Shown: piece by piece, positions 4,553-37,363 of the stretch | Layout: each line of letters begins with the position of its first letter | Position numbering within the stretch: the first letter of the stretch is position 1 | DNA from: an uncultured Spirochaetota bacterium | GTDB taxonomy: Bacteria; Spirochaetota; Spirochaetia; SZUA-6; Fen-1364 | Length of the DNA stretch: 64,000 bases | Direction of reading: 5' to 3' | Assembly (NCBI GenBank): GCA_963734545.1 | Contig: CAVTHO010000008.1 | Span: 576,001-640,000 of the forward strand | Program-made: the position numbers and the translations under genes | The notes under the pieces: model-generated | What the model saw: only the letters and a program-made list of their open reading frames with translations | What the model was told of the DNA's origin: nothing | The model's database searches: none

Positions 4553-4611
4553 CAGTTATTTCCATGCCGCCACGAATTTCAGATGGAATCCCGAGGATGT
4601 CAACCCGGATA

Positions 4612-4663
4612 CGAATGCCATGGAGTACTATGGCCGCGAATGCCATGGAGTACCATGGCCGCG
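4612..4663. repeat. Tandem 25-bp repeat with internal palindrome in the divergent ppc/ECF intergenic region
   Basis: cgaatgccatggagtactatggccg followed by cgaatgccatggagtaccatggccg (1 mismatch); unit 2 contains gccatgg-agta-ccatggc. Confidence 0.85.
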
Positions 4664-4672
4664 GTATTTTGC

Positions 4673-4701
4673 TTGACTTTATGGCAGTCCAACAGCAGAA
4701 T
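4673..4701 (+). promoter_or_regulatory. Putative sigma70 promoter of the ECF sigma gene
   Basis: TTGACT-17 nt-CAGAAT, ending 10 nt before ATG 4712. Confidence 0.45.
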
Positions 4702-10967: not shown

Positions 10968-11047
10968 ATCAGCCTCCATACAGGCAGGAGCTCCGAGGCT
11001 CCCGTCCATATGAGCAAATTACTCAGGTTTGAAGTGCCCCGGCAACG

Positions 11048-11974: not shown

Positions 11975-12139
11975 GGGTCGGAATATAACATAAGGAACGG
12001 GCTCCCGGCGCGCCGGCAAACGGCGGGCCGGCAACCGACCGTCGGCTTGCCGTTCGTCGGTTGGGCCGAGCTATTCTCGCATTGCCTCCCGCAGAAACAA
12101 TTCGTATACATTAACGATGATATATAGGAAGGAACCCAC

Positions 12140-12592
12140 ATGAAGAAACCGGGTGTGCTTCTTGTCCTGCTTCTTTCGACGGCCCTTCCCCTGGCTGCCC
12201 AGTCAAACCAGCTTCTCGATCAGCTCCTGGATCAGCCGGCCGCGAGCTTCGGCGAGGTGGTCTACATGACACTGTCCGCCGCGAAGCTCGTGCCGGAGAC
12301 CGCCACCCCGGCGGAGGCGCTGGAGGCGCTCCAGCAGCAGAACTGGAAGGTCCGAATCCTCCCGGCAGATGCCCCGATCCCCCTCGGGGACTACGCATTC
12401 CTGCTCATGAAGGCTTTCAAGCTCTCGGGGGGCATCTTCTACAGCCTGTTCCCCGGGCCCCGCTACGCCGTCCGTGAGCTGGGCTACATCAGGGTCATCA
12501 GCACCGATGCCCGTCCCAATCGAAACCTCTCGGGTGAAGAGGCGGTGCACATCCTGGGCAACCTGATGGCGCGCAAGGAGGGCTCCTCATGA
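12140..12592 (+). CDS. Array gene A, copy 1: secreted protein with degenerate SLH-like repeats
   Basis: Signal peptide ending LPLAA-Q; ADAPIPLGDYAFLLMKAF and YAVRELG...RPNRNLSGEEAVHIL resemble SLH repeats. Confidence 0.7.
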   Translation: MKKPGVLLVLLLSTALPLAAQSNQLLDQLLDQPAASFGEVVYMTLSAAKLVPETATPAEALEALQQQNWKVRILPADAPIPLGDYAFLLMKAFKLSGGIFYSLFPGPRYAVRELGYIRVISTDARPNRNLSGEEAVHILGNLMARKEGSS

Positions 12593-13917
12593 AAGCGTGG
12601 CGCACACTGGCGATCATCGCTGCACTCGCCCTGGCGGGCGCGGCGGACCTCAGCGGGATGGACTTCGATTTCGGCGGCTTCGTGGAAAACTCAAGCACTC
12701 CCTCGGTGGCCCTGGACGCCAAGAACCCCGTGTGGGCCATGGACCAGAAGGACAGGCTGGCCCTCTGGGCGGAGATGCATTTCAACCCGCAGCTTTCCCT
12801 CACCATCCAGGGCAGTTATGCCTTCTCCCTGGATCTGCCCTATCTGTTCGACGTTGATGCGCTGAGGCTGGACTGGAAGATACTTCCTTCCCTGCGTGCC
12901 AGCCTGGGCAGGTTCGTCTTCTCGGACTTCACGGGCCACGTTCTGAATCACAAGCTGGACGGGGTGCTGTTCGGCGTGGACTTCCCTTTCATGGTGCTGA
13001 GCGCGGGGGCGGGGTTCTCGGGACTCGTGCTCAAGCCCTCCTCCCTGATCCTCATGAGCCGCTCGGACACCGCCGACCAGTCTGACAACGGGGTCATCCT
13101 GGCTGCCCCCCGGCTGATCGAGAAGCTGGAGGTGCTCTTCCCCAACCTTCTGCCCCGCCAGGACCTGACGGTGTCGGTGGTCCTGCAGCAGGACTTCCGT
13201 CCCAGCGGCTCCCTCATCCAGGAGGGCGAGCAGCAGCAGTTCGTCGCGGGCGCATCGGGGGGGAGACTGACCAGCGAGTACTTCGGGCTGGGGGTCTCGG
13301 GGGCCATCGTCTCCGCCCTGTACTACGACGCATTCTTCTATTACAGCCTTGGCAGCACTCTCTCCTATGTGGCGGACCCCGCTTCGGGCACCGGCTCCTC
13401 CTACCAGTACGAAGCGATCCAGGCTTTCCTGGGCGGCATAGGGCTTCGCTACTACAACGAGGCGCTTTTGTCCTCCCGCGCGGAGCTGCGGGCCGTCATC
13501 TCCAGCGGAGATGCGGACAACAGCACATACCTGGAGGGCAACAGCGCGGGGGCATCGACGATCTTCATGCCCATTTCCCAGGAGACCCTCGGGCTGGCCT
13601 TTCAGCCCCAGCTGGGCAACCTGCTCATCCTCACCGCCAGCTATTCACTGAAGCCGGCGAGCCCGCTTCAGCTCATGGTGAAGGGGCAGTCCTTCCTCAG
13701 GCCGACCACGGGCGCCATATCGGCCCTGGGCATAGACCCGGCCTCCAATGCGCTGTACCTGGGGACCGAGATCGACGGCATCGTCAACTTCAGGCCTTTC
13801 TCCGACCTGGGCACCGCCCTTTCGCTGGGGTTCTTCCTGCCCAACAAGAGCGCGTTCACGGGCCAGGCCTCCCTGCCCGTTCTGGCCGGGCGGCTGGAGG
13901 TTTCTCTCAGCTTCTGA
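12589..13917 (+). CDS. Array gene B, copy 1: outer-membrane beta-barrel (alginate-export-like)
   Basis: Signal peptide, amphipathic strands, SGDAD...F.P and YLGTEID motifs, C-terminal LEVSLSF; ATGA overlap with A. Confidence 0.72.
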   Translation: MKAWRTLAIIAALALAGAADLSGMDFDFGGFVENSSTPSVALDAKNPVWAMDQKDRLALWAEMHFNPQLSLTIQGSYAFSLDLPYLFDVDALRLDWKILPSLRASLGRFVFSDFTGHVLNHKLDGVLFGVDFPFMVLSAGAGFSGLVLKPSSLILMSRSDTADQSDNGVILAAPRLIEKLEVLFPNLLPRQDLTVSVVLQQDFRPSGSLIQEGEQQQFVAGASGGRLTSEYFGLGVSGAIVSALYYDAFFYYSLGSTLSYVADPASGTGSSYQYEAIQAFLGGIGLRYYNEALLSSRAELRAVISSGDADNSTYLEGNSAGASTIFMPISQETLGLAFQPQLGNLLILTASYSLKPASPLQLMVKGQSFLRPTTGAISALGIDPASNALYLGTEIDGIVNFRPFSDLGTALSLGFFLPNKSAFTGQASLPVLAGRLEVSLSF

Positions 13918-13977
13918 AAGTGGTGGGAGGTTTTTCCGGGTTTCTGAGATATGCTTAAGATGCAGGAGTACGAATAT

Positions 13978-14628
13978 ATGAAACGATTTATATTGACTGT
14001 CGCGATGGCGTTGGCGCTCGCGCCGGTTTTGTTTTCTCAAACCCAGGCAGTAGTCAAAGAGTTCAAGGGCAAGGTGGAGATCAAGGCAGGCGGAGGCGAG
14101 TGGCAGCCGGTGGCAGCGGGCATGAAGCTGGACACGGGGGCCTCGATCTCCACGGGCTTCAGCTCCACCGCGGTGCTTGACCTGGGCACCTCGACGCTGA
14201 AGGTGGCCCCGCTGACCCGCATGCAGCTTGTGGAGCTGATCGCCCGACAGGGCAGCGTCTCCACCACCCTTGCGCTGAAGGTGGGCAGGGTCAACGCGGA
14301 AGTGAAGACCGCCCCGGGGCTCAAGCAGGACTTCACGCTGAAAGGGCCGCAGGCCACCGCAGCGGTGCGCGGCACGGAGTTCGAGTTCGACGGGGTCAGC
14401 GTGAAGGTGATCAACGGCTTGGTGTTCTTCTCCAACAACCAGGGCCAGGGTCGGGGAGTGGGAGCCGGTGAGCAGAGCCAGACCAACGGCACCCAGATTC
14501 CCACTACCGGAGAGCAGGAGAACGAGACCAACACGAGCGTCCAGCCGCACACCGCCCCGGGAGGGACAACCCTTCCGCCGTCGGCCGTGCCTCCGGCGCC
14601 CGCCACCGTGACCATCAGATGGCAGTAG
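13978..14628 (+). CDS. Array gene C, copy 1: secreted FecR-domain-like protein with T/P-rich tail
   Basis: Signal peptide; ISTGFSSTAVL, LKVGRV and TAAVRGTEF FecR-like motifs; tail ends ATVTIRWQ. Confidence 0.8.
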   Translation: MKRFILTVAMALALAPVLFSQTQAVVKEFKGKVEIKAGGGEWQPVAAGMKLDTGASISTGFSSTAVLDLGTSTLKVAPLTRMQLVELIARQGSVSTTLALKVGRVNAEVKTAPGLKQDFTLKGPQATAAVRGTEFEFDGVSVKVINGLVFFSNNQGQGRGVGAGEQSQTNGTQIPTTGEQENETNTSVQPHTAPGGTTLPPSAVPPAPATVTIRWQ

Positions 14629-14649
14629 ACTGAGATCCGGGAGAAGAAC

Positions 14650-15855
14650 ATGAAAGCACACATTCTGACAAGATCCACGGCGAGAATAGCCGTGATCATG
14701 ATATTGAGCGCAGCAAGCCTTGTACTCGCCGGCTGCTTTTACATGCCGGGGGTGAGCGGCAGGCCGGCAAAGGCCGGTGTCAGCATAGGCAGATCGCTGC
14801 TGCCTGCGAGCGTGTCATCTGTCGCGGTCATCGTAGGCGGGCCCGGCATGGAGACCATCGCCGCCCAGTACCCCGTGGGCACCACTTCGGCGACGCTGAC
14901 AGTGCCTTCAGGGGTCGCGCGCACCTTCACCGTGCTGGCCAACACCAAGTCGGTGACATTCCGAGACGATGTCACGGTAGACCTCGCTCCGGATGAGACA
15001 AAGGAGATTGTCCTTACCCCCACCCTGTCCGCCTCGCAGATCATCATCCCGGACCAATTGAGCGGCGTTGTTGCGCAGATATCCGATATGAACGGAACTG
15101 GATGGACCGCGCCTTCCATGCCCTCTGCGTACGACGTGGATTTCGACGATCAGGGTCGGATATATGTGGTGAACAGCATCAGCGCCATCGCTGTCATGAA
15201 CGATATTTCGGACGCCGCTCCGATCTCGATCTTCGACCCCAGCCAGGCACAGATACTCTCGATCGCCGTGGACCGGCCGCGCGGCCTGCTGTATTGGATC
15301 AACTATAACGGTGTAATCTACAGAGTGCCGATTACCCCTACAATGTCGGACACCCCGGTGCCGATTGACGTATCCGGAGTATTACCGCAGATGTACTCCA
15401 ATGGGATTGCCGTGGATTCGGATGGCTTTGTCTATGTGGCGGCAACCTCACCCACTTACGCGGTACTGAAGATCGACCCGAACAAGCCACAGGTCGTGGC
15501 CAGTTCCACCTACTCATTCGGCGACCCATGGGACGTCCTGGTGAAAGGGGACTTCATCTACGTCAGTGACTATACGGCCAGGCAGATCGTTCGTCTTACC
15601 AAGAACCTCGATTTCGTGGATTCTTTCTCCGGCCCGGCCTCGGACCCATTCCTGGGACCCGAGCGGTTTGTTGCGATCTTGAACAAGCCGATCACCCTCA
15701 TCGACGAGCAAGATATCTATCAAGACCTGAAGGACCGGATCGTCTCCTTCGGCGACATGACAGGCGCAGGCTGGACGACCTACGGATCGACAGCACCCGC
15801 CTCGGGCTCGGGAGGGCCGGGTCTGTTCCTCTTCTTCCGCAACAACCTGGGCTGA
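14650..15855 (+). CDS. Array gene D, copy 1: lipoprotein with N-terminal beta-sandwich and NHL-like beta-propeller
   Basis: Lipobox VLAG-C; blades YDVDFDDQGRIYV, SIAVDRPRGLLYW, GIAVDSDGFVYV, PWDVLVKGDFIYVSD. Confidence 0.8.
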   Translation: MKAHILTRSTARIAVIMILSAASLVLAGCFYMPGVSGRPAKAGVSIGRSLLPASVSSVAVIVGGPGMETIAAQYPVGTTSATLTVPSGVARTFTVLANTKSVTFRDDVTVDLAPDETKEIVLTPTLSASQIIIPDQLSGVVAQISDMNGTGWTAPSMPSAYDVDFDDQGRIYVVNSISAIAVMNDISDAAPISIFDPSQAQILSIAVDRPRGLLYWINYNGVIYRVPITPTMSDTPVPIDVSGVLPQMYSNGIAVDSDGFVYVAATSPTYAVLKIDPNKPQVVASSTYSFGDPWDVLVKGDFIYVSDYTARQIVRLTKNLDFVDSFSGPASDPFLGPERFVAILNKPITLIDEQDIYQDLKDRIVSFGDMTGAGWTTYGSTAPASGSGGPGLFLFFRNNLG

Positions 15856-15875
15856 CGGGCGGGCGTGGCGGCCTG

Positions 15876-17693
15876 ATGGCTGATGAGCAATACATTGCCG
15901 CGCATCTCGCCGTCTATCCCGGGAACCGGGGAACTGTGCTCGTCTCGAATCGAAGCGCACGTCGTGCCGACATGCTGGAGGAGCAGCTATACGGCATCCT
16001 GAGGCAGGCGGATCGATTCGACACAATCGCCGGCCATACAAAAAGGCTCTTCGCCGCGGGCTGGGAGGATGACGGATCCGGGTTCATCGCATCCGCGTTC
16101 CGGGACCTCATTGCCCGCGGGCTCATGGTTTCAAAAAGCACATTCCTGGACAGTGTCCTGGACAAAGCGGGTGGGAGTGAAGCACCTCCGTCCGTGAGGT
16201 CCGTCGCTCTCACCACCCGGGACAGGCTGCCGCAGCTGCAGCGATGCCTTCGCGGATTCATCCGGAACAACGAGACGCACGGACGTAACGTGGACTACCT
16301 GGTCATGGATGACACCCGAACCGAAGACCAGGGGGCAAAGATGGGCGCGGTCCTCGGCACCTTCGCCGCTGCAGGAGCGAAGCTCTTCTACGCCGGGAGG
16401 GAAGAAAAGGCGGCCTACTTGCGCGCGCTGGTCCAGGCAGGGGGACCGGACGGGCTGCCGGCAGATGTCGTGAAGTTCTGCCTGGCCGGGGATGACGGGG
16501 ACTGGCCCACTTTCGGCGCGAATCGGAATGCCATCCTGCTGGCCGCTGCCGGAGAATTGTTTGTCATGTGTGATGATGACACGGCGTACGAGGCGGTTGC
16601 CTGCGGGGAGCCCGACACCACCCTTGCCCTCACATCGCTCAATGATCCGACCGTCCTTCGATTTTTCGGAGATCGCGCTGAATTGACCGCCGCAGTGCAC
16701 ACGGCGGATGTCGGCATCCTCTCCTGCCACGAGAAGCTGCTGGGACGATCCATCTCCGGCTGCATGTCGTGCATGGGGCCGGAGTGTACGCTCGATGTGG
16801 ATCGAATTGGCGCTGAATCCGCGCACAGGCTCTCCCGGCGGCCCGGATTGGTGAGAGCCACCATGTCAGGCTATTGGGGCGATTCCGGTATGGGCTCACC
16901 GCACGCGGCCCTCGAGCTCCTGGGAGAATCCAGGAAAGCCGTCATGCGCGCGAAGGCGGAATATGTCCGTGCCACGACCAGCAGAGAAGTCTTCCGCAGC
17001 GCCCCTCGGTACACAATCAGCGATGGCTCGCTGTTCATGACCATGCACACCGGATACGACAATCGAGGGCTTCTTCCCCCCTTCCTTCCGCTCGGCAGGA
17101 ATGAAGATGGGCTCTTCTCCCTGACATTGCATGCATGTATGGAGGGGGCGCTTGTCGGACATCTCCCGCTTGCCGTTCATCATGCACCGCCTGAATTGCG
17201 CCGCTTTCCGCAAGGGGCTTTTCTCAACCCCGCTCCAGGGATCTCCGATGTTATCGCGGCGGCGATGACATCCTTTGCTCCCTCCCCGGGAGCTCGAAGC
17301 GCATCAGACAGGCTGGTGGCCCTGGGAAGACATCTCGTGGACTTCAGCAGTCAGGAGACGAAGGATTTCGAGGACCAACTCATGAGTTCGTGGCTGTCCG
17401 CGACGAGTCACTACATCGGCTTCCTGGAGCACCTTCTGAATCTGCACAAAAGGCAGCCCGAATACTGGGCGAATGACGTGCAGTCTTTGATCGAGAATCT
17501 GAAGGATTTCGTCGTCCACGGATCCCCCGCTGTTCCTTCCGAGCTCCATGACAATCAGCCTGTCGAGCAGGCAAAAGAGTCATGCAAACGCCTCGTGCGC
17601 AAGTTCGGTGAGCTGCTTTATTGGTGGCCGGTCATCAACGGCGCCGCAAGACGGCTCAATGAGAGCGACACACGCCTCGCGCGGCGCGTCTAG
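15876..17693 (+). CDS. Array gene E, copy 1: GT-A/GT2-like glycosyltransferase with RRE-like N-terminal domain
   Basis: No signal peptide; TTRDR, YLVMDD, GANRNA, CDDD, RNEDG; N-terminal ~90 aa ending FRDLIARGLM. Confidence 0.7.
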   Translation: MADEQYIAAHLAVYPGNRGTVLVSNRSARRADMLEEQLYGILRQADRFDTIAGHTKRLFAAGWEDDGSGFIASAFRDLIARGLMVSKSTFLDSVLDKAGGSEAPPSVRSVALTTRDRLPQLQRCLRGFIRNNETHGRNVDYLVMDDTRTEDQGAKMGAVLGTFAAAGAKLFYAGREEKAAYLRALVQAGGPDGLPADVVKFCLAGDDGDWPTFGANRNAILLAAAGELFVMCDDDTAYEAVACGEPDTTLALTSLNDPTVLRFFGDRAELTAAVHTADVGILSCHEKLLGRSISGCMSCMGPECTLDVDRIGAESAHRLSRRPGLVRATMSGYWGDSGMGSPHAALELLGESRKAVMRAKAEYVRATTSREVFRSAPRYTISDGSLFMTMHTGYDNRGLLPPFLPLGRNEDGLFSLTLHACMEGALVGHLPLAVHHAPPELRRFPQGAFLNPAPGISDVIAAAMTSFAPSPGARSASDRLVALGRHLVDFSSQETKDFEDQLMSSWLSATSHYIGFLEHLLNLHKRQPEYWANDVQSLIENLKDFVVHGSPAVPSELHDNQPVEQAKESCKRLVRKFGELLYWWPVINGAARRLNESDTRLARRV

Positions 17694-17760
17694 CGCGTTC
17701 ACGGGCCAGGCCTCCCTGCCTGTTCTGGCCGGGCGGTTGGAGCTTTCCCTGAGTTTCTGA
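17692..17760 (+). repeat. Remnant 3' end (69 bp) of gene B before C copy 2
   Basis: agcgcgttcacgggccaggcctccctgcc...tctga matches 13849-13917 and 23252-23320. Confidence 0.92.
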
Positions 17761-17790
17761 GATATACTTGGAATTGCAGGAGTGACAGCC

Positions 17791-18441
17791 ATGAAACGTT
17801 ATCTATTGATTGTCGTGATGGCGCTGGCGCTCGCGCCGGTTCTGTTTTCTCAAACCCAGGCAGTGGTCAAAGAGTTCAAGGGCAAGGTGGAGATCAAGGC
17901 CAGTGGAGGAGAGTGGCAGCCGGTGGCAGCGGGCATGAAGCTGGACACGGGGGCCTCGATCTCCACGGGCTTCAGCTCCACCGCGCTGCTTGACCTGGGC
18001 ACCTCGACGCTGAAGGTGGCCCCGCTGACCCGCATGCAGCTGGTGGAGCTGATTGCCCGACAGGGCAGCGTCTCCACCACCCTTGCGCTGAAGGTGGGCA
18101 AGGTGAACGCGGAAGTGAAGACCGCCCCGGGGCTCAAGCAGGACTTCACGCTGAAAGGGCCGCAGGCCACCGCGGCGGTGCGCGGCACGGAGTTCGAGTT
18201 CGACGGGGTCAGCGTGAAGGTGATCAACGGCCTGGTGTTCTTCTCCAACAACCAGGGCCAGGGTCGGGGGGTGGGAGCAGGGGAGCAGAGCTCGACCAGC
18301 GGCACGCAGATTCCCACCAGCGGAGAGCAGGAGAACGAGACCAATACGAGCGTCCAGCCGCACACCTCCGCGGGAGGGACGACCCTTCCGCCGTCGGCCG
18401 TGCCTCCGGCGCCCGCCAACGTGACCATCAGATGGCAGTAG
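17791..18441 (+). CDS. Array gene C, copy 2 (FecR-like)
   Basis: Near-identical to 13978-14628; ends ANVTIRWQ. Confidence 0.8.
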   Translation: MKRYLLIVVMALALAPVLFSQTQAVVKEFKGKVEIKASGGEWQPVAAGMKLDTGASISTGFSSTALLDLGTSTLKVAPLTRMQLVELIARQGSVSTTLALKVGKVNAEVKTAPGLKQDFTLKGPQATAAVRGTEFEFDGVSVKVINGLVFFSNNQGQGRGVGAGEQSSTSGTQIPTSGEQENETNTSVQPHTSAGGTTLPPSAVPPAPANVTIRWQ

Positions 18442-18461
18442 ATGAGATCCGGGAGAAGAAC

Positions 18462-19641
18462 ATGAAAGCACAAACGTTGAAATCATCCGGGGCGAAAATG
18501 GCCGCGGTTGTCATTTTATGCGCGGCGGGTCTTGCGCTCACGAACTGCTTTTACACGCCTGGAGTGTCTGGAGACAACGCCCGGACAGGCATAGCCCTGC
18601 CCAAGTACGTTGCCGCGAACACCGTCTCGCTGGCCCTGATCGTGGGCGGTCCGGGGATGGACCCCATATATACCAGCTACACGACCATCCCCCCCAGCAT
18701 CAGCATCGAGGTTCCATCGGGCCTTGCGAGGACATTCACCGTGCTGCTGAACAGCCCTTCCGCCACCCTTCGGGGCGTGGCAACGGTAGACCTGCAGCCG
18801 GGAGAGTCCAAAGACATCACGGTCAACCCGACGGTGGCGGGCACGCAAATCATCGTCCCTGATAACTACAATTCCCGCCTGGTGCAGATCTCCGATATGA
18901 GCGGGACTGGATGGACCGACGCTGTCAATTACCTCGCCGTACGACGTCGATTTCGACGATCAGGGCCGAGTATATGTCGCGTACCCGAACTGTGCGGGTG
19001 GCCCTGGCGTCATACGGATCAACGATATCACAGATACGAGCTTGACTACGCTCACCGGCGTCACGGCAACGAATATCCGGTCGCTCGCCATGGACCTGAC
19101 ACGCGGCCTGCTGTATTACACGAACGGCAGCACTCTCTGGAGAATGCAGGTGACCCCGACGCAGGGCCCTGAAACGCCCGTAGATCCGTCAGGCTTATTG
19201 GGCAGCTTTTATACACAAGGGATCGCCGCGGATTCGGATGGTTTTATCTATATGGCGAGAACCTCCCCCTCAGTCGCCGTGCTGAAGATCGATCCCCGTG
19301 TGCCGGGAATTGTGAAGACCTACGTCGGCTCGCTCATCAACCCCTGGGACGTCCTGGTGAATGGCGACTACGTCTATGTGAGCGACTACACGGGCAAGCA
19401 GATCGTTCGCCTTACCAGGAACCTTGATTTCGTGGATTCGTTCTCCGGCCCGGCCTCGGATCCATTCCTGGGACCCGAGCGGTTCGTGGCGATCCTGAAC
19501 AAACCGATTACCGTCATCGACGAGGGCGGTTCCGGAGGCCCTGACAGGCTTGTCTCATTCAACGACATGACCGGTGCGGGCTGGACGCCCTACGGATCCC
19601 ATGGAGGGGGGCCAGGCCAGTTCGTGTTCTTCCTTTGCTGA
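18462..19641 (+). CDS. Array gene D, copy 2: beta-propeller lipoprotein (frameshift near 18930)
   Basis: LTN-C-FYTPGV lipobox-like start; continues in the other frame as TSPYDVDFDDQGRVYV through GPGQFVFFLC; homologous to D1. Confidence 0.75.
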
Positions 19642-19661
19642 AGAACGGGCACCACGGCTTG

Positions 19662-21479
19662 ATGATGGATGAGCAGTATATCGCGGCACCTGTCGCCGCG
19701 TATCCTGCGGATAAAGGACATGTCCTCATCTCCAACCGGAACACAGGCCGTCCCGATGTATTGTCAGGGCAGTTGTTCGGCATCCTGAGACAGGCGGACC
19801 GATTCGACACCATTGCCGGCCATGTAAAAAGGCTTTTCGCTGCGGGCTGGGAGGATGACGGATCCGGATTCATCGAATCCGCGTTCCGTGAGCTGATTTC
19901 CCACGGGCTCCTGGTGCCGAAAAGCGCCTTCCTGAGGGGCCTCCTCGAAATGGGCGCCGGATGCGAGGCTCCTCCGACCGTCACCTCGGTGATCGTGACG
20001 ACGCGCGACCGGATCCCTCAACTCCAGCGGTGTCTTGTTGGATTCATCGAAAACACCAGGAAGCACGGCCGCAGCGTGGACTACCTGGTCATCGACAATT
20101 CAAGAAACGAAAACCAGCGCGTGAAAATCACTGGCGTCCTCACTCCATTCGCCGCGGGGGGCGTGAAAATCCATTACGCGGGGAGAGAGGAGAAATCACG
20201 CTTCAAGATTGAGCTGGTTCAGGCAGGGTCAGCGGAAGGACTGCCGGATGATATCGTGGACTTCTGCCTGTTCGGTGACGAGGGTTTCGCGCAGACCTAC
20301 GGAGCCAATCGGAATGCGCTCCTCCTGGACACCACGGGAGAATTGATCGTGATGACCGATGATGACACGCTGTGCCAGCCAGCCGTCCTTGGAGAATCGG
20401 CGCCCACCCTCGCGCTCAGCTCGATGAAGGACCCGGCGGTCACCCGCTTCCATGCCGACAGAAGGCAATTGGTGCGGTCGGTGCGAACCACCGACGTCGA
20501 TATTCTCTCCTGGCATGAGAAAGTGCTGGGGCGCTCGATCGCCGGATGCATGTCGGCCCTCGGATCGGATTCCGCGCTCGACGTGGAATGCATCACACCC
20601 GAATCCGCGCATTTCTTCGGGAAAGCATTAAAAGTCGTGAGGGCCTCCGCGTCGGGACACTGGGGAGATGCGGGAATGGATTCACCCTACCTGCTTCTCG
20701 AGCTGTCGGGAAAATCGCGGGATCTTCTCATGCGCTCGAAGGAGCAGTACACGCAGGCCGGGGAGAGCAGGGAGATCTTTCGGAGCGTCCCGTGCTGCAC
20801 AATCAGCGACAATTCGGTTTTCATGGCCATCAACGCCGGAATTGACAACCGTTCGCTCCTGCCCCCCTTCCTTCCGGTCGGCAGGAACGAAGACGGGATC
20901 TTTGCCATGACCCTGCGTATCTGCGCGCAGGACGCGCTCATCGGCCATATCCCCCTTGCCGTGCTTCACTCACCGCAGGAAGCGCGGCGCTATGAGCAAG
21001 GCGGCAGTCCAATTGCGGCCCCGAGGCTGGCGGAAATCCTGTCGGCGATCATGAGCACATTCAACCCATCTCCGGGGCACGAGACCGTTTCCCAGAGGCT
21101 CTCCGACCTTGGAAAGCTCCTGGTCGATGTCGGCTCCCTGAAGATCGAAGATTTCACAGAACACGTCGAAACGGTCTGGGCCGCGGCGGCGAGTCGTTAT
21201 ATCGGCCTTCTCGAATCCCTGCTCGATCTGCACCGTGGCAAGCCGGATTACTGGGCGGAGGATGTCCTGTCCTTCATTGAAAGGCTCACCGATTTCACCG
21301 TACACAAGTCCGCAGCAGCTCCCCGCGAGCTTCTGGAAACGCAAACCCCCGAGCAGGCAGTGGAAGTCTGCCGCCGCGTGGTGCGTAGATTCGGCGAGCT
21401 CCTGCAATGGTGGCCGGTGATCTACGGCGCTGCAAAGAAGCTCCGTGATGCCGACAAACGCCTCGTGCGGCGGGTTTGA
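19662..21479 (+). CDS. Array gene E, copy 2: RRE-like plus GT-A glycosyltransferase
   Basis: Colinear homolog of E1; TTRDR, GANRNA, TDDD, RNEDG. Confidence 0.7.
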   Translation: MMDEQYIAAPVAAYPADKGHVLISNRNTGRPDVLSGQLFGILRQADRFDTIAGHVKRLFAAGWEDDGSGFIESAFRELISHGLLVPKSAFLRGLLEMGAGCEAPPTVTSVIVTTRDRIPQLQRCLVGFIENTRKHGRSVDYLVIDNSRNENQRVKITGVLTPFAAGGVKIHYAGREEKSRFKIELVQAGSAEGLPDDIVDFCLFGDEGFAQTYGANRNALLLDTTGELIVMTDDDTLCQPAVLGESAPTLALSSMKDPAVTRFHADRRQLVRSVRTTDVDILSWHEKVLGRSIAGCMSALGSDSALDVECITPESAHFFGKALKVVRASASGHWGDAGMDSPYLLLELSGKSRDLLMRSKEQYTQAGESREIFRSVPCCTISDNSVFMAINAGIDNRSLLPPFLPVGRNEDGIFAMTLRICAQDALIGHIPLAVLHSPQEARRYEQGGSPIAAPRLAEILSAIMSTFNPSPGHETVSQRLSDLGKLLVDVGSLKIEDFTEHVETVWAAAASRYIGLLESLLDLHRGKPDYWAEDVLSFIERLTDFTVHKSAAAPRELLETQTPEQAVEVCRRVVRRFGELLQWWPVIYGAAKKLRDADKRLVRRV

Positions 21480-21542
21480 GCCCTCTTGCGCATACCATGA
21501 GTTTGCACTAAAGATAGCATCATATAGAAGAAAGGAGCCTCC

Positions 21543-21995
21543 ATGAAGAAACCGGGTGTGCTTCTTGTCCTGCTTCTTTCGACGGCCCTTCCCCTGGCTG
21601 CCCAGTCAAATCAGCTTCTCGATCAGCTCCTGGATCAGCCGGCCGCGAGCTTCGGCGAGGTGGTCTACATGACACTGTCCGCCGCGAAGCTCGTGCCGGA
21701 GACCGCCACCCCGGCGGAGGCGCTGGAGGCCCTCCAGCAGCAGAACTGGAAGGTCCGAATCCTCCCGGCAGAAGCCCCGATCCCCCTCGGGGACTACGCG
21801 TTCCTGCTCATGAAGGCTTTCAAGCTCTCCGGGGGCATCTTCTACAGCCTCTTCCCCGGGCCCCGCTACGCCGTCCGTGAGCTGGGCTACCTCAGGGTCA
21901 TCACCACCGATGCCCGACCCAATCGAAACCTCTCGGGTGAAGAGGCGGTGCGCATCCTGGGCAACCTGATGGCGCGCAAGGAGGGCTCCTCATGA
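21543..21995 (+). CDS. Array gene A, second copy
   Basis: 4 substitutions in 150 aa versus 12140-12592 (counted by eye). Confidence 0.7.
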   Translation: MKKPGVLLVLLLSTALPLAAQSNQLLDQLLDQPAASFGEVVYMTLSAAKLVPETATPAEALEALQQQNWKVRILPAEAPIPLGDYAFLLMKAFKLSGGIFYSLFPGPRYAVRELGYLRVITTDARPNRNLSGEEAVRILGNLMARKEGSS

Positions 21996-23320
21996 AAGCG
22001 TGGCGCACACTGGCGATCATCGCTGCACTCTCCCTGGCGGGCGCGGCGGACCTCAGCGGGATGGACTTCGATTTCGGCGGCTTCGTGGAAAACTCAAGCA
22101 CTCCCTCGGTGGCCCTGGACGCCAAGAACCCCGTGTGGGCCATGGACCAGAAGGACAGGCTGGCCCTCTGGGCGGAGATGCATTTCAACCCGCAGCTTTC
22201 CCTCACCATCCAGGGCAGTTATGCCTTCTCCCTGGATCTGCCCTATCTGTTCGACGTTGATGCGCTGAGGCTGGACTGGAAGATACTTCCTTCCCTGCGT
22301 GCCAGCCTGGGCAGGTTCGTCTTCTCGGACTTCACGGGCCACGTTCTGAATCACAAGCTGGACGGGGTGCTGTTCGGCCTGGACTTCCCTTTCATGGTGC
22401 TGAGCGCGGGGGCGGGTTTTTCGGGACTCGTGCTCAAGCCCTCCTCCCTGATCCTCATGAGCCGCTCGGACACCGCCGACCAGTCTGACAACGGGGTCAT
22501 CCTGGCTGCCCCCCGGCTGATCGAGAAGCTGGAGGTGCTCTTCCCCAACCTTCTTCCCCGCCAGGACCTGACGGTGTCGGTGGTCCTGCAGCAGGACTTC
22601 CGTCCCAGCGGCTCCCTCATCCAGGAGGGCGAGCAGCAGCAGTTCGTCGCGGGCGCATCGGGGGGGAGACTGACCAGCGAGTACTTCGGGCTGGGGGTCT
22701 CGGGGGCCATCGTCTCCGCCCTGTACTACGACGCATTCTTCTATTACAGCCTTGGCAGCACTCTCTCCTATGTGGCGGACCCCGCTTCGGGCACCGGCTC
22801 CTCCTACCAGTACGAGGCAATCCAGGCTTTCCTGGGCGGCATAGGGCTGCGCTACTACAACGAGGCGCTTTTGTCCTCCCGCGCGGAGCTGCGGGCCGTC
22901 ATCTCCAGCGGAGATGCGGACAACAGCACATACCTGGAGGGCAACAGCGCGGGGGCATCGACGATCTTCATGCCCATTTCCCAGGAGACCCTCGGGCTGG
23001 CCTTTCAGCCCCAGCTGGGCAACCTGCTCATCCTCACCGCCAGCTACTCACTGAAGCCGGCGAGCCCGCTCCAGCTCATGGTGAAGGGGCAGTCCTTCCT
23101 CAGGCCGACCACGGGGGCCATTTCGGTTCTAGGAATAGATTCTGCTTCCAATGCGCTGTACCTGGGGACCGAGGTCGACGGGATCGTCAACTTCAGGCCT
23201 CTCTCCGATCTGGGCACCGCCCTTTCGCTGGGGTTCTTCCTGCCCAACAAGAGCGCGTTCACGGGCCAGGCCTCCCTGCCTGTCCTGGCCGGGCGGCTGG
23301 AGGTTTCCTTGAGTTTCTGA
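21992..23320 (+). CDS. Array gene B, second full copy (outer-membrane beta-barrel)
   Basis: 6 substitutions in 442 aa versus 12589-13917 (counted by eye). Confidence 0.72.
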   Translation: MKAWRTLAIIAALSLAGAADLSGMDFDFGGFVENSSTPSVALDAKNPVWAMDQKDRLALWAEMHFNPQLSLTIQGSYAFSLDLPYLFDVDALRLDWKILPSLRASLGRFVFSDFTGHVLNHKLDGVLFGLDFPFMVLSAGAGFSGLVLKPSSLILMSRSDTADQSDNGVILAAPRLIEKLEVLFPNLLPRQDLTVSVVLQQDFRPSGSLIQEGEQQQFVAGASGGRLTSEYFGLGVSGAIVSALYYDAFFYYSLGSTLSYVADPASGTGSSYQYEAIQAFLGGIGLRYYNEALLSSRAELRAVISSGDADNSTYLEGNSAGASTIFMPISQETLGLAFQPQLGNLLILTASYSLKPASPLQLMVKGQSFLRPTTGAISVLGIDSASNALYLGTEVDGIVNFRPLSDLGTALSLGFFLPNKSAFTGQASLPVLAGRLEVSLSF

Positions 23321-23351
23321 GCTATACTTGGAAGTGCAGGGAGTGACTGCC

Positions 23352-24002
23352 ATGAAACGTTACCTATTGATTGTCGTGATGGCCTTGGCGCTCACGCCGG
23401 TTTTGTTTTCTCAGACCCAGGCAGTGGTCAAAGAGTTCAAGGGCAAGGTGGAGATCAAGGCAGGCGGAGGCGAGTGGCAGCCGGTGGCAGCGGGCATGAA
23501 GCTGGACACGGGGGCCTCGATCTCCACGGGCTTCAGCTCCACTGCGGTGCTTGACCTGGGCACCTCCACGCTGAAGGTGGCCCCGCTGACCCGCATGCAG
23601 CTTGTGGAGCTGATCGCCCGACAGGGCAGCGTCTCCACGACCCTTGCGCTGAAGGTGGGCAGGGTGAACGCGGAAGTGAAGACCGCCCCGGGGCTCAAGC
23701 AGGACTTCACGCTGAAGGGGCCGCAGGCCACCGCCGCGGTGCGCGGCACGGAGTTCGAGTTCGACGGGGTCAGCGTGAAGGTGATCAACGGCCTGGTGTT
23801 CTTCTCCAACAACCAGGGCCAGGGCCGTGGGGTGGGGGCAGGGGAGCAGAGCTCGACCAGCGGCACGCAGATTCCCACCAGCGGAGAGCAGGAAAACGAG
23901 ACCAACACGAGCGTGCAGCCGCACACCACTACGGGAGGGACAGCCCTTCCGCCGTCGGCCGTGCCACCGGCCTCCGCCACCGTGACCATCACATGGCAGT
24001 AG
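23352..24002 (+). CDS. Array gene C, copy 3 (FecR-like)
   Basis: Near-identical to the other C copies; ends ATVTITWQ. Confidence 0.8.
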   Translation: MKRYLLIVVMALALTPVLFSQTQAVVKEFKGKVEIKAGGGEWQPVAAGMKLDTGASISTGFSSTAVLDLGTSTLKVAPLTRMQLVELIARQGSVSTTLALKVGRVNAEVKTAPGLKQDFTLKGPQATAAVRGTEFEFDGVSVKVINGLVFFSNNQGQGRGVGAGEQSSTSGTQIPTSGEQENETNTSVQPHTTTGGTALPPSAVPPASATVTITWQ

Positions 24003-24024
24003 ATGGAGAGTAGGGAGCAGCCAG

Positions 24025-25228
24025 ATGAAAACACAAATGTTCCGAGCATCTGTGGCGAGACTCGCCGCGGTTATCCTAGTGGGCGCGGCGAGCCTTGTGC
24101 TCTGCGAGCTGCTTTTACATGCCGGGAGTCAACGGCAAGTCTGCAAAGGCCGGCATCAGCGTGAACAGGTCGGCTGCTGCCCTCGAACCTGACGTCGATC
24201 GCGCTCATCGTGGGCGGGCCCGGCATGGAGACCATTGCCACCCAGTACTCCCTGGGCACCACCTCGGCGACGCTGACCGTTCCCTCAGGAGTCGCGCGCA
24301 CCTTCACGGTGCTGGCGAACACCGCGTCGGTGACGTTCCGAGGACGATGTCACGGTTGACCTCGCGCCGGACGAGACAAAGGAAATTGACCTGACTCCCA
24401 CGCTGTTTGCCACTCAGATCGTCGTCCCGGACTATCTCAATTATCCGGCTCGTGCAGATCTCCGACATGAAGGGGACCGGATGGACCGCGGTCGAGGATC
24501 CGACCTCGGGTCTAACCCACACGATGTTGATTTCGACGCTGAAGGTCGAATCTATGTGGCGAGACTAACTCCTCGAGGTATCCTGTGGATCGACGATATC
24601 ACCAACGGGACTTTTAACCCTGCTCAGCGGTTTCGTGGGGACGGACATACAGTCGCGTCGCCATGGACCGGGAAACGGGCCTTCTCTATTACGTGGGCTA
24701 ACTGTGAGTAGCCACGAGTCGTTGATGAGCTCCACAGAGAGACGTGATTTCGGGCCCGGACGAGCTGGTTGATCTGAGCAGCGAGGTCTGAATCAGTACC
24801 AGGGGATTGCCGTGGACTCGGATGGCTTTGTCTATGTTGTGAATAACCCACTACCCTGAAGTACTGAAGATCAATCCCAATCCGAACCCATCAAGTCCGT
24901 CGTGGGTAGCCAGCTACGCATCTCAACTACCCGTGTGACGTCCTGGTAAATGGCGACTACGTCTATGTCAGCGATCAGGCGGATGCGAAGATCGTTCGAC
25001 TTACGAAAGACCTTCCGTTCCCGGTTGAGTTCTTCGGCCCTGGCTCGGATCCATTCCTGGGACCCGAACGGTTCGTCGCGATCCTGAACAAGCAGATCAC
25101 CGTCATCGACGAGTGGAGTGCGAACGATGACAGGCTGGTCTCCTTCGGCGACATGATGGAGCGGGCTGGACGACCTATGGCACGCGTCCGGTTCGAACAG
25201 GGCCAGTTCCGGTTCATCTGGTACTATA
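24025..25228 (+). pseudogene. Array gene D, copy 3, multiply frameshifted (pseudogene or sequencing error)
   Basis: Fragments MKTQMFRAS..., SCFYMPGV, GGPGMETI, PHDVDFDAEGRIYV, GIAVDSDGFVYV, DPFLGPERFVAILNK and GQFRFIWYY in shifting frames. Confidence 0.7.
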
Positions 25229-26363
25229 ATCCGCGTTCGGGAGCGATCTCTCATGGGCTCCTGGTGAAGGAGAGCGCCTTCCGGTCCCTCTCTCGTCGAA
25301 AAGACAAGCGAGCAGGGACCGCTGCCGCCCATCACTTCAGTGATCGTCACGACACGGGACCGGATCCCTGAACTCCAGCGGTGCCTTGCAAGCTATATCG
25401 AGAGAAACGAGACGTTCGATCGCCGGCCCGAATACATTGTCCTCGACGATTCGCGGCAGCCGGGGACAGGCAGAGAGAATGGCGGAGATCGCTCATCCCC
25501 CTCTCGGCGAAGGGAACGCGGATTTCCTACGCGGGCATGGAAGAAAAGGCGCGGTTCGCGGATGAGCTCATGCGCGCGGCAAAGGGCGAAGGGCTCCCGG
25601 GAGACGTCGTCTCCTTTGCCCTGTTCGGCGATGAAGCCTACACGCGCACCGTGGGAGCCAATCGGAACGCGCTCCTCCTGGCCGCGCCGGGGGAACTCTG
25701 CGTCATGATAGACGATGACACGGTGAGCCGGACGGCCGTCCTCGAGGAAACGGACGCACACCTCGCGCTCAGCGCTTTAAAGGACCCGACTGTCTCCCGT
25801 TTCTACGCAGACAGAAAGCAGCTGGAGGATTCGGTGCGCCCCGTCGACGTCGATATTCTCTCCTGCCACGAGAAGATGCTGGGACGCTCGATCGCCGGAT
25901 GCGTATCGTGCCTTGGCCCCGATTCCGAGCTCGACGTGGATCGCCTTGCCCCGGAGTCTGTCCTCTTCTTCGGAAGCGGATCAAAGGTGGTGAAAGCCAC
26001 CGCGACGGGATTCTGGGGAGATTCGGGAATGGACTTCGCCCCACCGGGTCCTGGAGCTGATGGGAGAATCCCGGGACCAGGTCATGCGGTCGAGGAAACT
26101 GTACGCCCGAGCCAGGGAAAGCCGGGAGATCTTTCGCGGCGTGCCCCGCTACATGATCGGCGACGGCGCCGTGTTCATGCCCATGAACGCCGGGGTCGAC
26201 AACCGCTCGCTGCCGCCCTTCCTTCCGGTGGGCACTCGGACGGGATCTTCGCAATGACCCTGCGTGTCTGCGCGGAGGAGGCGCTGATCGGCCACGTCCC
26301 CTTCGCCGTCCTGCACGCGCCTCTGGAGACGCGCCACTATGCGCAGAACGCCGCGATTGCGGC
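25229..26363 (+). pseudogene. Array gene E, copy 3, truncated at both ends and frameshifted
   Basis: Homology to E begins at aatccgcgttc (the SAF helix); retains TTRDR, GANRNA and IDDD; ends near RHYAQ just before the cyclase stop. Confidence 0.75.
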
Positions 26364-26393
26364 TGGGGGCGCGGCAGCGCGCCCCGCTGCCGT

Positions 26394-29111
26394 CTACTTC
26401 GTCGTCAGGTTGAACACCCCGTCCCAGTTGGAGGCGGGCGGCTTTGCCTCGAACTCCTGGCATGACTTGATGTAGCGCTTGGCCGGGCCGTCCTCGGGCA
26501 CGAGCCGCAGCACTTCCCCAAGCGTCGCTCGCGCCTCCGCCCAGTCCTTGGCCTCGAACTGTTCGAGCCCTCTGTGGAAAATCTCCACTGCCTCCTCGAG
26601 GGATTTCTCCGCCCGGCCTTTCTCCTCGATGAGCTCGAACAGGCGGACGGGCTGGTTGATGCCCACCACGCGGACACGATCCAGCTTCCGCACCAGGAAG
26701 TCCTGCCCGAGCGACTCCTGCGTGATCTCGCTGATGAGGATCCACGTGCCGTACTGCTTGTTGACTCCCTCCAGCCGGGCGGCGAGGTTCACCGCGCTGC
26801 CCATCATCGTGTAGTCCATTCTCTGCGGCGTCCCCATGTTGCCCACGGTCATCTCGCCGGTGTTGATCCCGATGCGGGTATGGAGGGCCGAGGGCGCCAG
26901 CTTCTCCGTCAGGAACCTTTCGTTCAAGGCGACCTCCGCCCTCTTCATCCGGATGGCCGCCATGCAGGCGCGCCGCGCATGGTCGGGAAGGTCGAGCGGC
27001 GCTCCGAAGAACGAGATGATCGCATCCCCTTCGTACTTGTCGATCGTTCCCCGCAGCTCGAGGATGATGTCGCTCATCTCGGTGAGGTAGAGGTTGATGA
27101 GGTGCACGAGGGCTGTCGGGTCGAGCACCTCGGAGATCGTGGAGAATCCCCTGACGTCGGTGAACATGGCCGTCATGAATTTCTTCTCGCCGCCGAGGTT
27201 GAGCTTCTCCGGGTTGGCCAGGAGGTCGTTGATGACCTCGGAGGACAGGTAGTGTCCCCACGCGTTCCGCACGAAGCTCTTCTCCCGCTCCGTGCGGAGG
27301 AACTTGACCGCCGTGAGCGCGATGAACGTGAGAAAGACCGCGCCCACCGGAGTGAGCGTGTTGATGTAGATGCCCGTGAGCAGGAAGAGCGCGAGAAAAA
27401 GCCCGAAGAGCACGACGACGACGGCAGCGCCTACCACCAGCGAGCGGAGCGCGTCCATATTGAGGATGACGAAGGTCACGCCAAAGGAGAGGAGAAGAGC
27501 GAGGATGATGCCGTACCACCAGGGCCGCTGGTTGAGGAACTGGCCCTGGAGGATCGTGTTCACCACCGATGCGTGCGTGCCGACGTTCACGTATTCGCCG
27601 ACAAAGGGGTTGACGCCGATATCCGTGGTCGAGGTGGCGGTGACGCCGATGATGCAGAACGCGCCGGGAAGCTTCTTCGCAAGTACCTGGCGGGTCTCCA
27701 TCAGGTCGTCGTAGATCCCGTGCGTGTTGGAGAAGACCTTCGGTACCTCCGCCTTCACCGCTTCCGCGTTGGCGCGCGCGTCCTTCGCAAGGCCGCGGTT
27801 CGCCAGCACCTTGTCCACGTCCGCGAGGATGCTCTTCTCCGCGTCCCCGCCGAGGAATTGTCCGACGCCCTCGAAGAACGCCGCGCGGGCCTTTACGTAC
27901 GTGTCCATCTGGGCCAGGTCTCCGCCGCCGAGCATGTCCTTCTTGAGGCTCTCGCAGTAGGTGTACAGGTCCAGAAGCGCCGTCTCTCCCTTGTAGTAGG
28001 ACAGGTACCCGGATTGGTCCATGAGCTTGAGGTTGTACAGCAGGTCTTCCTCGAGCTGCCGGTGATAGACCAGCTTGTAGAAGCTCAGGTGCCGGAAGCT
28101 CTTGTCATACGTGTGCGGCGACCAGTTGATCATGAAAAGGCCCGTCAGGAGTCAGGGGGATCGTGATGTCCTTCTTTCCCTTTCCCGGCACGCTCGGCCC
28201 CCTTCAGCACGATCGCGCCCTTCTTGAGAATCGACCTGCGGGATTGCCGAGCCAGTCCAGGAGGGGCCGGAAGGCGAGCTGCGCCGAAGTACTTCCCGTT
28301 GAACGACTTGATCAGGTCGATGCGTCGCCTCACCCCGTCAGGGTCGACGATCACGTTGGGAAATCCCGCGCCCGCGCGCCCCCAGAGCCACGGGCAGGAA
28401 TGGCGGGATACAGCGACGCCGCCGTGCGCACGGAGCCTGACTTGCACGGTCACGTTGTTCAAAGCCAGGTTGTCCAGGGCGTACTGCGGCGAGCTCGGGA
28501 GCTCGCATTCGCGTCCGGCGTGTCGGGGGCAGCTACCGTGAGAAACGCCGTGCCGAAAAAACGGGCCGCCTGGCCGAGGTAGGCATCGTTGTCCCGCTCC
28601 ACGCTCTTCACCGTCGTCCAGGAGCCTGCTGCTTGCCCTGATCGGTGAGGCCTTGGAGGTCGGAGACGTATCGGGGCGCGTCCTTGAGCGGTATGTTTCC
28701 CGCACGGATGGCCTCGAAAAGCTGCTCGATGCTGGTCTGGATCTGGGCGAATTCCTGGTTGAAGGCATCCGGGACGTTCTGGCGCAGGACGAAGGTGTCC
28801 AATCCGCGAGGGCTCTTGTTCACGTACTCGATATCGAACATCGCGTAGCCGGCGCCGAACTCGCGCATGAGGATGAGTCCGTTCGCCATCACGTCGCGGC
28901 TCCATGGCCAGACGCCGACCTTGGTTATTGCCAGGTCATCCACATCCAGCAGGAGGATGGACTGGTTTTCGACCACCGCCGGCTTCACGTGCAGGAACAG
29001 GTCGTACACCCTCTGCTCGATCCTGTCCATGGCGCCGACTGCCGCCAGGACCGTGAACACGGCCACCACAAACGCCGGCACGATGAAATCGAAGCGGTTC
29101 TTCGCGAACAT
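26394..29111 (-). CDS. CHASE2-domain class III adenylate cyclase (frameshifts ~28140-28620)
   Basis: N-terminal TM, VWPWSR, FDIEY and VDPDGVRRR (CHASE2); 3 TM helices; FTDVRGFSTISE, DKYEGDAI, MDYTMMGSAVNLAARLE (Lys/Asp, ATP-type); TPR-like tail ending WDGVF. Confidence 0.88.
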
Positions 29112-29136
29112 GGCCACCTCCGCCGTTCACGCGCTC

Positions 29137-31317: not shown

Positions 31318-31325
31318 CGAATCAC

Positions 31326-37363
<6,038 letters not shown>

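Follow-up and report, generated by a model that had tools for sequence, protein, structure and literature searches.

The stretch of DNA analyzed here, hereafter the window, comprises 64,000 nucleotides from an uncultured Spirochaetota bacterium (GenBank assembly GCA_963734545.1, contig CAVTHO010000008.1, positions 576,001 to 640,000 of the forward strand). Reading of the window revealed three co-oriented gene units on the + strand, from position 12140 to about 26400, arranged as A-B-C-D-E, C-D-E and A-B-C-D-E. A is a small secreted protein, B a predicted outer-membrane β-barrel, C a secreted FecR-domain protein, D a lipoprotein with a β-propeller head and E a cytoplasmic protein resembling sugar enzymes; at its far end, the array meets a convergent gene that encodes a CHASE2 class III nucleotide cyclase. 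As presented below, A, B, C, a lipoprotein and such a cyclase recur together in other Spirochaetia, which suggests that the array belongs to an envelope signalling module. The original prediction, made from the letters of this stretch alone, had described a co-oriented array with this gene order, and both genes and order were borne out on the + strand. It had missed a remnant of a B gene, the split frame of D2 and the broken state of D3 and E3, and it had ended the array at 26390, one gene short of the cyclase (Table 1).

Table 1. Features of the array and of the adjoining cyclase gene (window positions).
Feature	Position	Strand	Description
A1	12140-12592	+	150 amino acids, secreted (signal peptide, without lipobox), unit 1
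B1	12589-13917	+	442 amino acids, outer-membrane 18-strand β-barrel (predicted), AlgE fold, unit 1
C1	13951-14628	+	Secreted FecR-domain protein, unit 1
D1	14650-15855	+	401-amino-acid lipoprotein, SBBP/NHL β-propeller head, unit 1
E1	15876-17693	+	605-amino-acid cytoplasmic GT-A-fold protein, unit 1
B remnant	17692-17760	+	Last 69 nucleotides of a B gene, abutting the E1 stop codon
C2	17782-18441	+	FecR-domain protein, 94% identical to C1, unit 2
D2	18462-19641	+	Propeller lipoprotein, frame split by one extra base near 18920, unit 2
E2	19635-21479	+	57.5% identical to E1, unit 2
A2	21543-21995	+	4/150 residues unlike A1, unit 3
B2	21992-23320	+	6/442 residues unlike B1, unit 3
C3	23328-24002	+	FecR-domain protein, 94-95% identical to C1 and C2, unit 3
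D3	24025-25190	+	Broken D copy, several frameshifts and stops, unit 3
E3	25228-26400	+	E copy truncated at both ends and frameshifted, unit 3
CHASE2 class III nucleotide cyclase	26394-29117	-	Converges on the array

The copies of the five genes differ from one another to very unequal degrees. The residue differences predicted between the two copies of A and of B were exact; at the DNA level these copies differ by 2.2-2.3%, by substitutions only, with 21 synonymous and 6 non-synonymous codon changes between B1 and B2. The near identity claimed for the C cores was likewise recovered (94-95% among the three copies), as was the heavy divergence of D and E, with 66% DNA identity between D1 and D2 and 57.5% protein identity between E1 and E2. 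Between-copy identity was 50-63% for D vs 94-99% for A, B and C. The B remnant, which begins at the E1 stop codon, is 91% identical to the 3′ end of B1 and stands before C2; therefore, unit 2 corresponds to a full unit from which recombination has removed A and most of B. In unit 3, the nearest relative of D3 was the cyclase-proximal D of genome G014 (74.6% DNA identity). Compared with the cyclase-proximal D-E pair of G014, D3 and E3 carry many one-nucleotide insertions and some deletions, and they lack about 245 nucleotides across the end of D3 and the start of E3 and about 480 nucleotides at the 3′ end of E3.

In the host genome (5.1 Mb, 10 contigs), we found no copy of B or E outside the array, save for one weak and partial match to the B profile on contig C5 (E 8e-11). 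Comparable arrays were present in G002 (A-B-C-D-E, A-B-C-D-E, D-E, D, cyclase) and in G014 (D, A-B-C-D-E, C-D-E, cyclase). Upstream of A, on the opposite strand, lie genes for a TerC/DUF475 membrane protein (11048-12034) and a dienelactone hydrolase (10002-11009); both also flank the G014 array, and the membrane-protein gene also flanks the G002 array. Therefore, the array occupies a syntenic position within the genus. A promoter and terminator scan proved unusable: promoter-like sites numbered 3 where 3.3 were expected and, of the 23 terminator-like sites (12.7 expected), many fell within genes. Elsewhere in the window, at 57011-58828 (- strand), another 605-amino-acid open frame without a Pfam family was noted; it is unrelated to E, since the E search of the bacterium's own genome did not retrieve it.

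To define what is constant around B, we used two sets of genomes. B was found in 27/41 close relatives. A class-wide sample of 151 Spirochaetia genomes yielded B in 72 and CHASE2 in 89; in the small genomes of this sample (1.2-1.8 Mb), no B was detected. We read 37 B loci, 17 of them picked blind to the cyclase and 20 chosen from contigs already known to bear a CHASE2 match. A and C accompanied B in all 37, in the order A-B-C in 36 and with A on the other strand in one, in agreement with the prediction of a constant A-B-C chassis with variable genes behind it. A CHASE2 cyclase was present in the stretch read in 32 of the 37 loci, and in 12 of the 17 picked blindly. It is usually divergent from A; in the window's genus, it is convergent and at the far end of the array. 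Independently of this selection, at least 40 of the 73 strong B matches (E≤1e-40) lay no more than 7 kb from a CHASE2 match of their contig, a figure obtained by comparing the match tables by hand with 150 of the 246 CHASE2 matches and with many contigs ending beside B. For genomes of 3-5 Mb with between two and four CHASE2 genes each, we estimate the adjacency expected by chance at about 1%.

The cyclase of the window matches the CHASE2 and Guanylate_cyc families, and its full length aligns to the G014 orthologue. In relatives, the protein has about 900 amino acids, with one N-terminal transmembrane helix followed by about 500 periplasmic residues; a further hydrophobic stretch, at about residues 532-602, was split by the plot into overlapping peaks. 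Behind C, a lipoprotein gene followed in most of the loci read. The conserved unit therefore comprises the cyclase and A-B-C together with a lipoprotein whose foot is shared and whose head varies (see below). The original prediction had proposed a system that displays lipoproteins or exports a glycan; this was left unsupported, and a CHASE2 cyclase accompanies A-B-C almost everywhere. As a separate observation, a secreted protein of about 320-370 amino acids without a Pfam family, which we call P337, is encoded within a few kb of the module in 14 of the 37 B loci (for example L040:8560-9573, L046:11727-12740 and L063:6693-7664, all on the - strand).

We then considered each protein of the chassis. 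A belongs to a secreted family of 150 amino acids confined to Spirochaetota. It had been described as SLH-like, which was not confirmed: no Pfam model, SLH included, matched A at E≤0.1, the PDB profile search returned nothing under E 0.5, and the nearest named atlas cluster, which is indeed SLH, scored 0.83, under the level at which the atlas match counts as more than a lead. The assignment of B to the AlgE-type barrels was, in contrast, confirmed. The model of B (predicted local distance difference test score, pLDDT, 88.9) is an 18-strand barrel without an N-terminal domain. Foldseek aligned it to AlgE with E 9e-20 and TM 0.67-0.73, the next family reaching 5e-12, and VIA aligned 370/421 residues to AlgE1 with Z 28.8 vs 26.2 for the next family, OccD/K. 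Sequence identity to AlgE was 14-16%. The match of B to the Pfam family Alginate_exp (PF13372) reached 17.6 bits, under the 25.2 cut-off, and a precomputed PF13372 match was present in 13 of 120 B homologues among the matches listed. With an alignment of nine B sequences as query, we recovered six related loci, all from close relatives. C was correctly predicted to be FecR-like, since C1 matches Pfam FecR (PF04773) with E 3.5e-7 and 31 bits, over the 24-bit cut-off. In the alignment, a variable low-complexity linker follows, then a conserved short C-terminal strand ending in W. A natural fusion of B and C (P0099, 675 amino acids) also carries FecR.

The fourth slot of the module is where the loci differ. 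D1 has a lipobox, an N-terminal β-sandwich and an SBBP/NHL β-propeller head, in line with the predicted β-propeller lipoprotein. Elsewhere, the lipoproteins of this slot carry unrelated heads and fall into several classes: the D propeller, a class of 450-500 amino acids without a family, a short class of 241-270 amino acids, DUF1565 and Flg_new. Over their first 120 or so residues, the D class and the 450-500-amino-acid class were aligned by hhalign with a probability of 97.2% (E 4e-11, 116 columns), part of this score coming from the signal peptide and lipobox. The gene directly after the D-class lipoprotein is E in genomes G000, G002, G014 and G007. In G015, G069 and G153, it encodes a 295-amino-acid protein that is unrelated to E; the three proteins match one another at E≤1e-90, and two of them have a weak GT28_C match. 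Neither gene follows the D-class lipoprotein in G024 and G056. A glycosyltransferase-like gene, of one or the other of two unrelated kinds, thus stands right after D in 7 of the 9 D-class genomes with downstream sequence. Gene order of this kind favours a functional link between D and a sugar enzyme, the idea of the original prediction, without demonstrating glycosylation. In other genomes, A-B-C is accompanied by lipoproteins and, in the D class, by glycosyltransferase-like genes; E itself was found in 12/41 relatives.

These observations bear on the idea that B, with A and C, translocates the lipoprotein or holds it at the surface in a Slam-like manner, E glycosylating it first and the cyclase being a regulator or a passenger. 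Such a display machine would account for the lipoprotein with a conserved N-terminal domain found after C in most loci, for a D that diverges between copies far more than A, B and C, as a surface-exposed diversifying protein would, and for the glycosyltransferase-like gene that follows most D-class lipoproteins. Against it, the fold of B is of the 18-strand AlgE/OprD type and no Slam (DUF560) Pfam match was obtained at E≤0.1. Moreover, B is not a general lipoprotein exporter of spirochaetes, since it was not found in the sampled small genomes of the class, and display leaves the tight link to the CHASE2 cyclase and FecR unexplained. We regard such a display machine as unlikely. Display and signalling are nevertheless compatible, for the sensor could be the lipoprotein itself, threaded through the barrel.

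E was correctly anticipated to be a cytoplasmic glycosyltransferase-like protein: it is a sugar enzyme-like protein of the GT-A fold, and no signal peptide was read from its sequence. E1 comprises a winged helix (residues 1-100) that resembles a RiPP recognition element (RRE-like), a GT-A domain of the UAM/MtdL (GT75-like) type and a C-terminal helical bundle, and its model has a pLDDT of 88.3. Residues 103-593 aligned with the rice UDP-arabinopyranose mutase UAM2 (8cid) with Z 21.9 over 316 residues (root-mean-square deviation 4.2) and with the GDP-sugar mutase MtdL (7xps) with Z 19.9, the next GT-A group scoring about 15; Foldseek also retrieved MtdL (E 3.5e-6). Identity to UAM and MtdL was 9-15%, no match to Pfam RGP (reversibly glycosylated polypeptide, PF03214) was obtained at E≤0.1, and the nearest named atlas clusters, DUF6271 (0.84) and RGP (0.83), are leads only. 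The DDD motif at 233-235 is invariant in 20 sequences; in 26 distant sequences D234 and D235 are invariant and D233 is at least 90% conserved. In the model, the N-terminus consists of three strands over residues 11-35 and helices at 36-44, 51-60 and 70-80. Foldseek related this domain to the RRE-bearing heterocyclases LynD (E 9e-4), TruD and McbB (range to 9e-3), and the E profile gave a weak match (E 0.92) to residues 14-92 of the radical SAM enzyme CteB, presumably its RRE. PqqD models matched none of 13 N-terminal pieces of E at E≤10, and we therefore call the domain RRE-like rather than an RRE.

Within the module, E is optional (12/41 relatives vs 27/41 for B). Spirochaete E genes follow a D-class or a short-class lipoprotein gene, and in two metagenome loci E is convergent with a lipoprotein gene of the 450-amino-acid class. 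This distribution is also relevant to the suggestion that E makes or feeds a glycan which leaves the cell through B as an AlgE-like pore. The nearest solved structure to B is indeed an alginate exporter, E has the fold of a sugar enzyme, and other glycosyltransferase-like genes (GT2, GT4 and weak GT28_C types) lie near some loci. Nonetheless, E is a soluble protein that lacks membrane segments and the architecture of a synthase, and the 37 B loci share no conserved gene for a polysaccharide synthase, polymerase, co-polymerase, flippase or ABC exporter. E was also found in fewer relatives than B, which instead has a FecR protein and a CHASE2 cyclase as its constant partners. Glycan export thus appears very unlikely.

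Beyond spirochaetes, E appears from homology searches to be a member of a very large, unnamed and uncharacterized enzyme family. At E≤0.001 we counted 4,367 cluster representatives, and at the stricter E≤1e-30 there were 2,712; the majority are full length and include the N-terminal domain. The atlas hints that the family is commonest in Pseudomonadota. Repeating the word-indexed search with the E profile gave the same 33 proteins as before, and a tblastn search of plasmids gave no match to E. Some members are fused to GT2 or FkbM domains or lie beside B12-radical SAM genes, as in L129 and L137, where the radical SAM protein is of the B12-binding type. In L039 (G025:C19, 888-3737), an E homologue without nearby A-B-C adjoins a radical SAM gene and a gene for a secreted protein that has PEGA and LpoB/CsgG-like matches. 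A short form of E (about 450-520 amino acids, without the N-terminal domain) stands tail to tail with a gene for a Tat-signal protein of about 250 amino acids in seven metagenome loci (L115, L120, L121, L124, L127, L142 and L153). This twin-arginine-signal family has no Pfam family and carries conserved NFNGT and GGARGGGGSNFTGS motifs; it may form an enzyme-substrate pair with the short E. A hand count had hinted that E-family genes generally lie beside genes for exported proteins, which the signal-peptide script reported below did not show.

The state of the assembly had to be considered before interpreting the broken genes. In the 6-kb glutamate synthase (gltB) region, comparison with G002, whose frame of 1506 amino acids is intact, gave 22 one-base insertions and three one-base deletions. 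Against its G014 orthologue, the cyclase of the window shows 12 one-base insertions and no deletion, 11 of the 12 lying within 28143-28628, and is split into three frames. Since gltB is riddled with one-base indels too, small frameshifts here cannot be read as gene decay, and they are probably consensus errors; the view of unit 3, D2 and the cyclase as pseudogenes on the basis of such frameshifts was dropped after the gltB comparison. D2 is probably intact in reality, its extra base being such an error, and the cyclase may be intact as well, while the large deletions of E3, unlike the small frameshifts, may be real. Housekeeping genes are in pieces at 31300-37300, 1822-4700 and 44776-48119 (glutamate synthase, PEP carboxylase and an AcrB-type pump), with an uneven density of errors: 12140-18900 and 19050-24000 are free of such breaks. 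In addition, contigs of public runs X1 and X2 have one base fewer at 14630, just past the C1 stop codon, which may be another consensus error or a strain difference.

The same error-prone assembly (25 one-base indels in 6 kb of gltB and 12 insertions in the cyclase) raises the question of whether the repeats are, wholly or in part, an assembly artefact, the true locus being a single A-B-C-D-E unit with the cyclase. Twelve public runs contain some of the sampled words, at most 0.18 of them. We placed contigs of four public runs, all short, on 12000-29200. The E2-A2 and unit 3-cyclase junctions were unbridged, and 24000-26350 and 28072-28645 were barely covered. One contig (X1, record 3) does cross the junction between E1 and the B remnant, over 17487-17774, with one differing letter. 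Furthermore, the units diverge from one another in a way that collapsed or duplicated reads would not produce, and comparable multi-unit arrays were assembled independently in G002 and G014. The artefact, which the original prediction had itself named as a danger, is therefore countered by the independent arrays and by the E1/B-remnant contig, although most unit junctions remain unbridged by public contigs; overall, we give it next to no credence.

A studied precedent for the association of B and C with the cyclase is found in Sinorhizobium meliloti. On pSymB, a gene for a 1190-amino-acid protein with FecR (E 3.1e-15), TPR and a C-terminal barrel lies directly before cyaK. From its position before cyaK and its size, we take this gene to be nsrA. 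According to the available parts of PMC7529298 and PMC13001267, the outer-membrane protein NsrA must be present for a signal, of peptide nature, to reach the CHASE2 cyclases CyaK and CyaD1/D2, and the NsrA barrel spans residues 600-1200. The size of the pSymB protein fits the barrel position given in the part of PMC7529298 at hand. Just upstream of this gene and cyaK, at 997-1542 (- strand) of the pSymB locus L057, lies a gene for a membrane protein with a domain of the Pycsar-effector type (PycTM, E 9e-12), which could be a cyclic-nucleotide-responsive effector beside the cyclase.

Taking the linkage with the CHASE2 cyclase, the FecR domain of C and the barrel fold of B together, we consider it somewhat more probable than its negation that A-B-C and the lipoprotein form the envelope arm of a split NsrA/CyaK-like signalling module, which feeds the adjacent CHASE2 cyclase and is equipped here with swappable D-E cassettes. 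The chassis itself is common in Spirochaetia and represents, in split form, a kind of system that is known but has hardly been studied; what sets this window apart is the E enzyme family, along with a tandem duplication that includes D-E cassettes. From the gene linkage, folds and families, which are direct results, we infer the whole of the following mechanism. B would sit in the outer membrane in complex with A, a constant small periplasmic subunit, and with the foot of the lipoprotein. The lipoprotein would dock on this chassis via its conserved N-terminal β-sandwich and display its variable head, a propeller in this genus. Either envelope stress or a ligand bound to the variable head would set the state of the complex. 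C, as a FecR protein of the periplasm, would relay this state of B and the lipoprotein to the periplasmic CHASE2 domain of about 500 residues, which would turn on the synthesis of cyclic AMP or cyclic GMP. In the window, recombination has duplicated the envelope arm in tandem and left the B remnant behind, and the lipoprotein slot has grown into D-E cassettes, so that several D heads would provide several input specificities for one cyclase. E would most likely modify D, or supply a sugar (furanose) for D, before export. A more specific proposal, that the E family consists of RRE-like-guided cytoplasmic enzymes which transfer sugars to exported proteins before export, so that the D-E cassettes are differently glycosylated propeller inputs to one CHASE2 cyclase, seems to us distinctly unlikely as it stands.

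Several results weigh against a split NsrA/CyaK-like module with D-E cassettes. For five of the 17 blindly picked loci (both G008 loci, G027, G034 and the short G010 contig), the stretch read contained no cyclase, and four of these five bear E. The parallel with NsrA is one of architecture only, without a TPR region here, and hhalign of the B profile against the NsrA-like pSymB protein gave a probability of 0.1%, with no homology seen. A lipoprotein constantly beside the barrel fits a role in lipoprotein display equally well. Unit 3 and the cyclase are broken as assembled and, if this is real, the local module is partly dead. Concerning the cassettes, the divergence of D and E copies compared pair by pair gave r = 0.25 (15 non-independent pairs), and pairwise co-divergence was rejected as unsupported. 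The solved structures nearest to E are nucleotide-sugar mutases and not protein glycosyltransferases. In 6 of 10 long fusions examined (P0285, P0226, P0195, P0204, P0230 and P0241), the E-family domain stands last, directly after a phosphopantetheine carrier domain of the non-ribosomal peptide synthetase/polyketide synthase (NRPS/PKS) type, which suggests, from domain order, that some members act on carrier-bound products. Finally, a crude script found signal peptides beside E-family genes in 26/70 adjacent vs 26/78 control genes, with no enrichment.

What CHASE2 domains sense is described as unknown in the accessible portion of PMC5192318, and NsrA is the only CHASE2 envelope partner studied so far. 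The module described here is present in about half of the sampled Spirochaetia, including genomes assembled as a single contig, and encodes the barrel, the FecR protein, the small subunit and a lipoprotein with an exchangeable head as separate genes. With its parts in separate genes and its wide occurrence in Spirochaetia, signalling from the outer membrane to CHASE2 proteins is therefore within reach of genetic study. From the D-E cassettes, it seems that duplicating cassettes can multiply the input specificity of the module. In addition, E points to a very large uncharacterized family, combining a GT75-like GT-A domain with an RRE-like domain, whose members are also found behind NRPS carriers and beside Tat-exported proteins. 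If E proved to be an RRE-like-guided enzyme of this kind, the tandem array would amount to a collection of exchangeable inputs, decorated with sugars, that feed a single second-messenger output.

Our literature search found nothing in print on this spirochaete module; for CHASE2 in spirochaetes, it retrieved one preprint, which concerns HD-GYP phosphodiesterases. The comparison with known systems can be made part by part. B shares with AlgE the 18-strand barrel fold; it differs from it in falling under the Pfam threshold, in having no genes for alginate or polymer synthesis nearby and in its FecR and CHASE2 partners. E resembles UAM/RGP (GT75) and MtdL in its GT-A superposition and its DDD metal motif, and differs from them by the addition of the RRE-like N-terminal domain and of the long C-terminal helical bundle. 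The analogies first drawn with Slam and with HMW1C and GtfA/B hold for the gene logic, a barrel beside a lipoprotein and a cytoplasmic sugar enzyme beside an exported protein, but not for the folds. Slam barrels have 14 strands and a TPR domain, whereas B has the AlgE fold and no DUF560 match; HMW1C and GtfA/B are GT-B enzymes, whereas E has the GT-A fold. A logic comparable to the one we propose is known for RcsF, which is threaded through outer-membrane barrels and reports to the inner membrane.

Further parallels come from systems in which a secreted FecR protein is encoded beside a CHASE2 sensor. In Campylobacterota, a CHASE2 cyclase is clustered with a FecR-domain protein (PMC9239204, as far as its available text goes), and the BiofilmReg operon of Burkholderia encodes a LysM-FecR protein, a CHASE2 kinase and a DUF4136 lipoprotein (PMC5192318, in the same accessible portion), so that the Burkholderia cluster shares a lipoprotein with the window as well. 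As these partial texts describe them, the other partners differ: the former has a phosphodiesterase and a TPR protein, whereas in the latter the LysM-FecR protein is accompanied by a response regulator and by the CHASE2 kinase, a histidine kinase. Neither cluster has an AlgE-fold barrel, A or D-E cassettes. The original prediction had not recognized the five-gene combination as any named system; NsrA-CyaK, as far as the available parts of the two papers cited above describe it, offers a precedent for a FecR domain, a barrel and a CHASE2 cyclase together. NsrA is a single FecR-TPR-barrel polypeptide of about 1190 amino acids, whereas in the window FecR (C) and the barrel (B) are separate genes, without TPR, and the module adds A and the lipoprotein. 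Common to both is that neighbouring coding sequences supply a FecR domain, an outer-membrane β-barrel and a CHASE2 class III cyclase.

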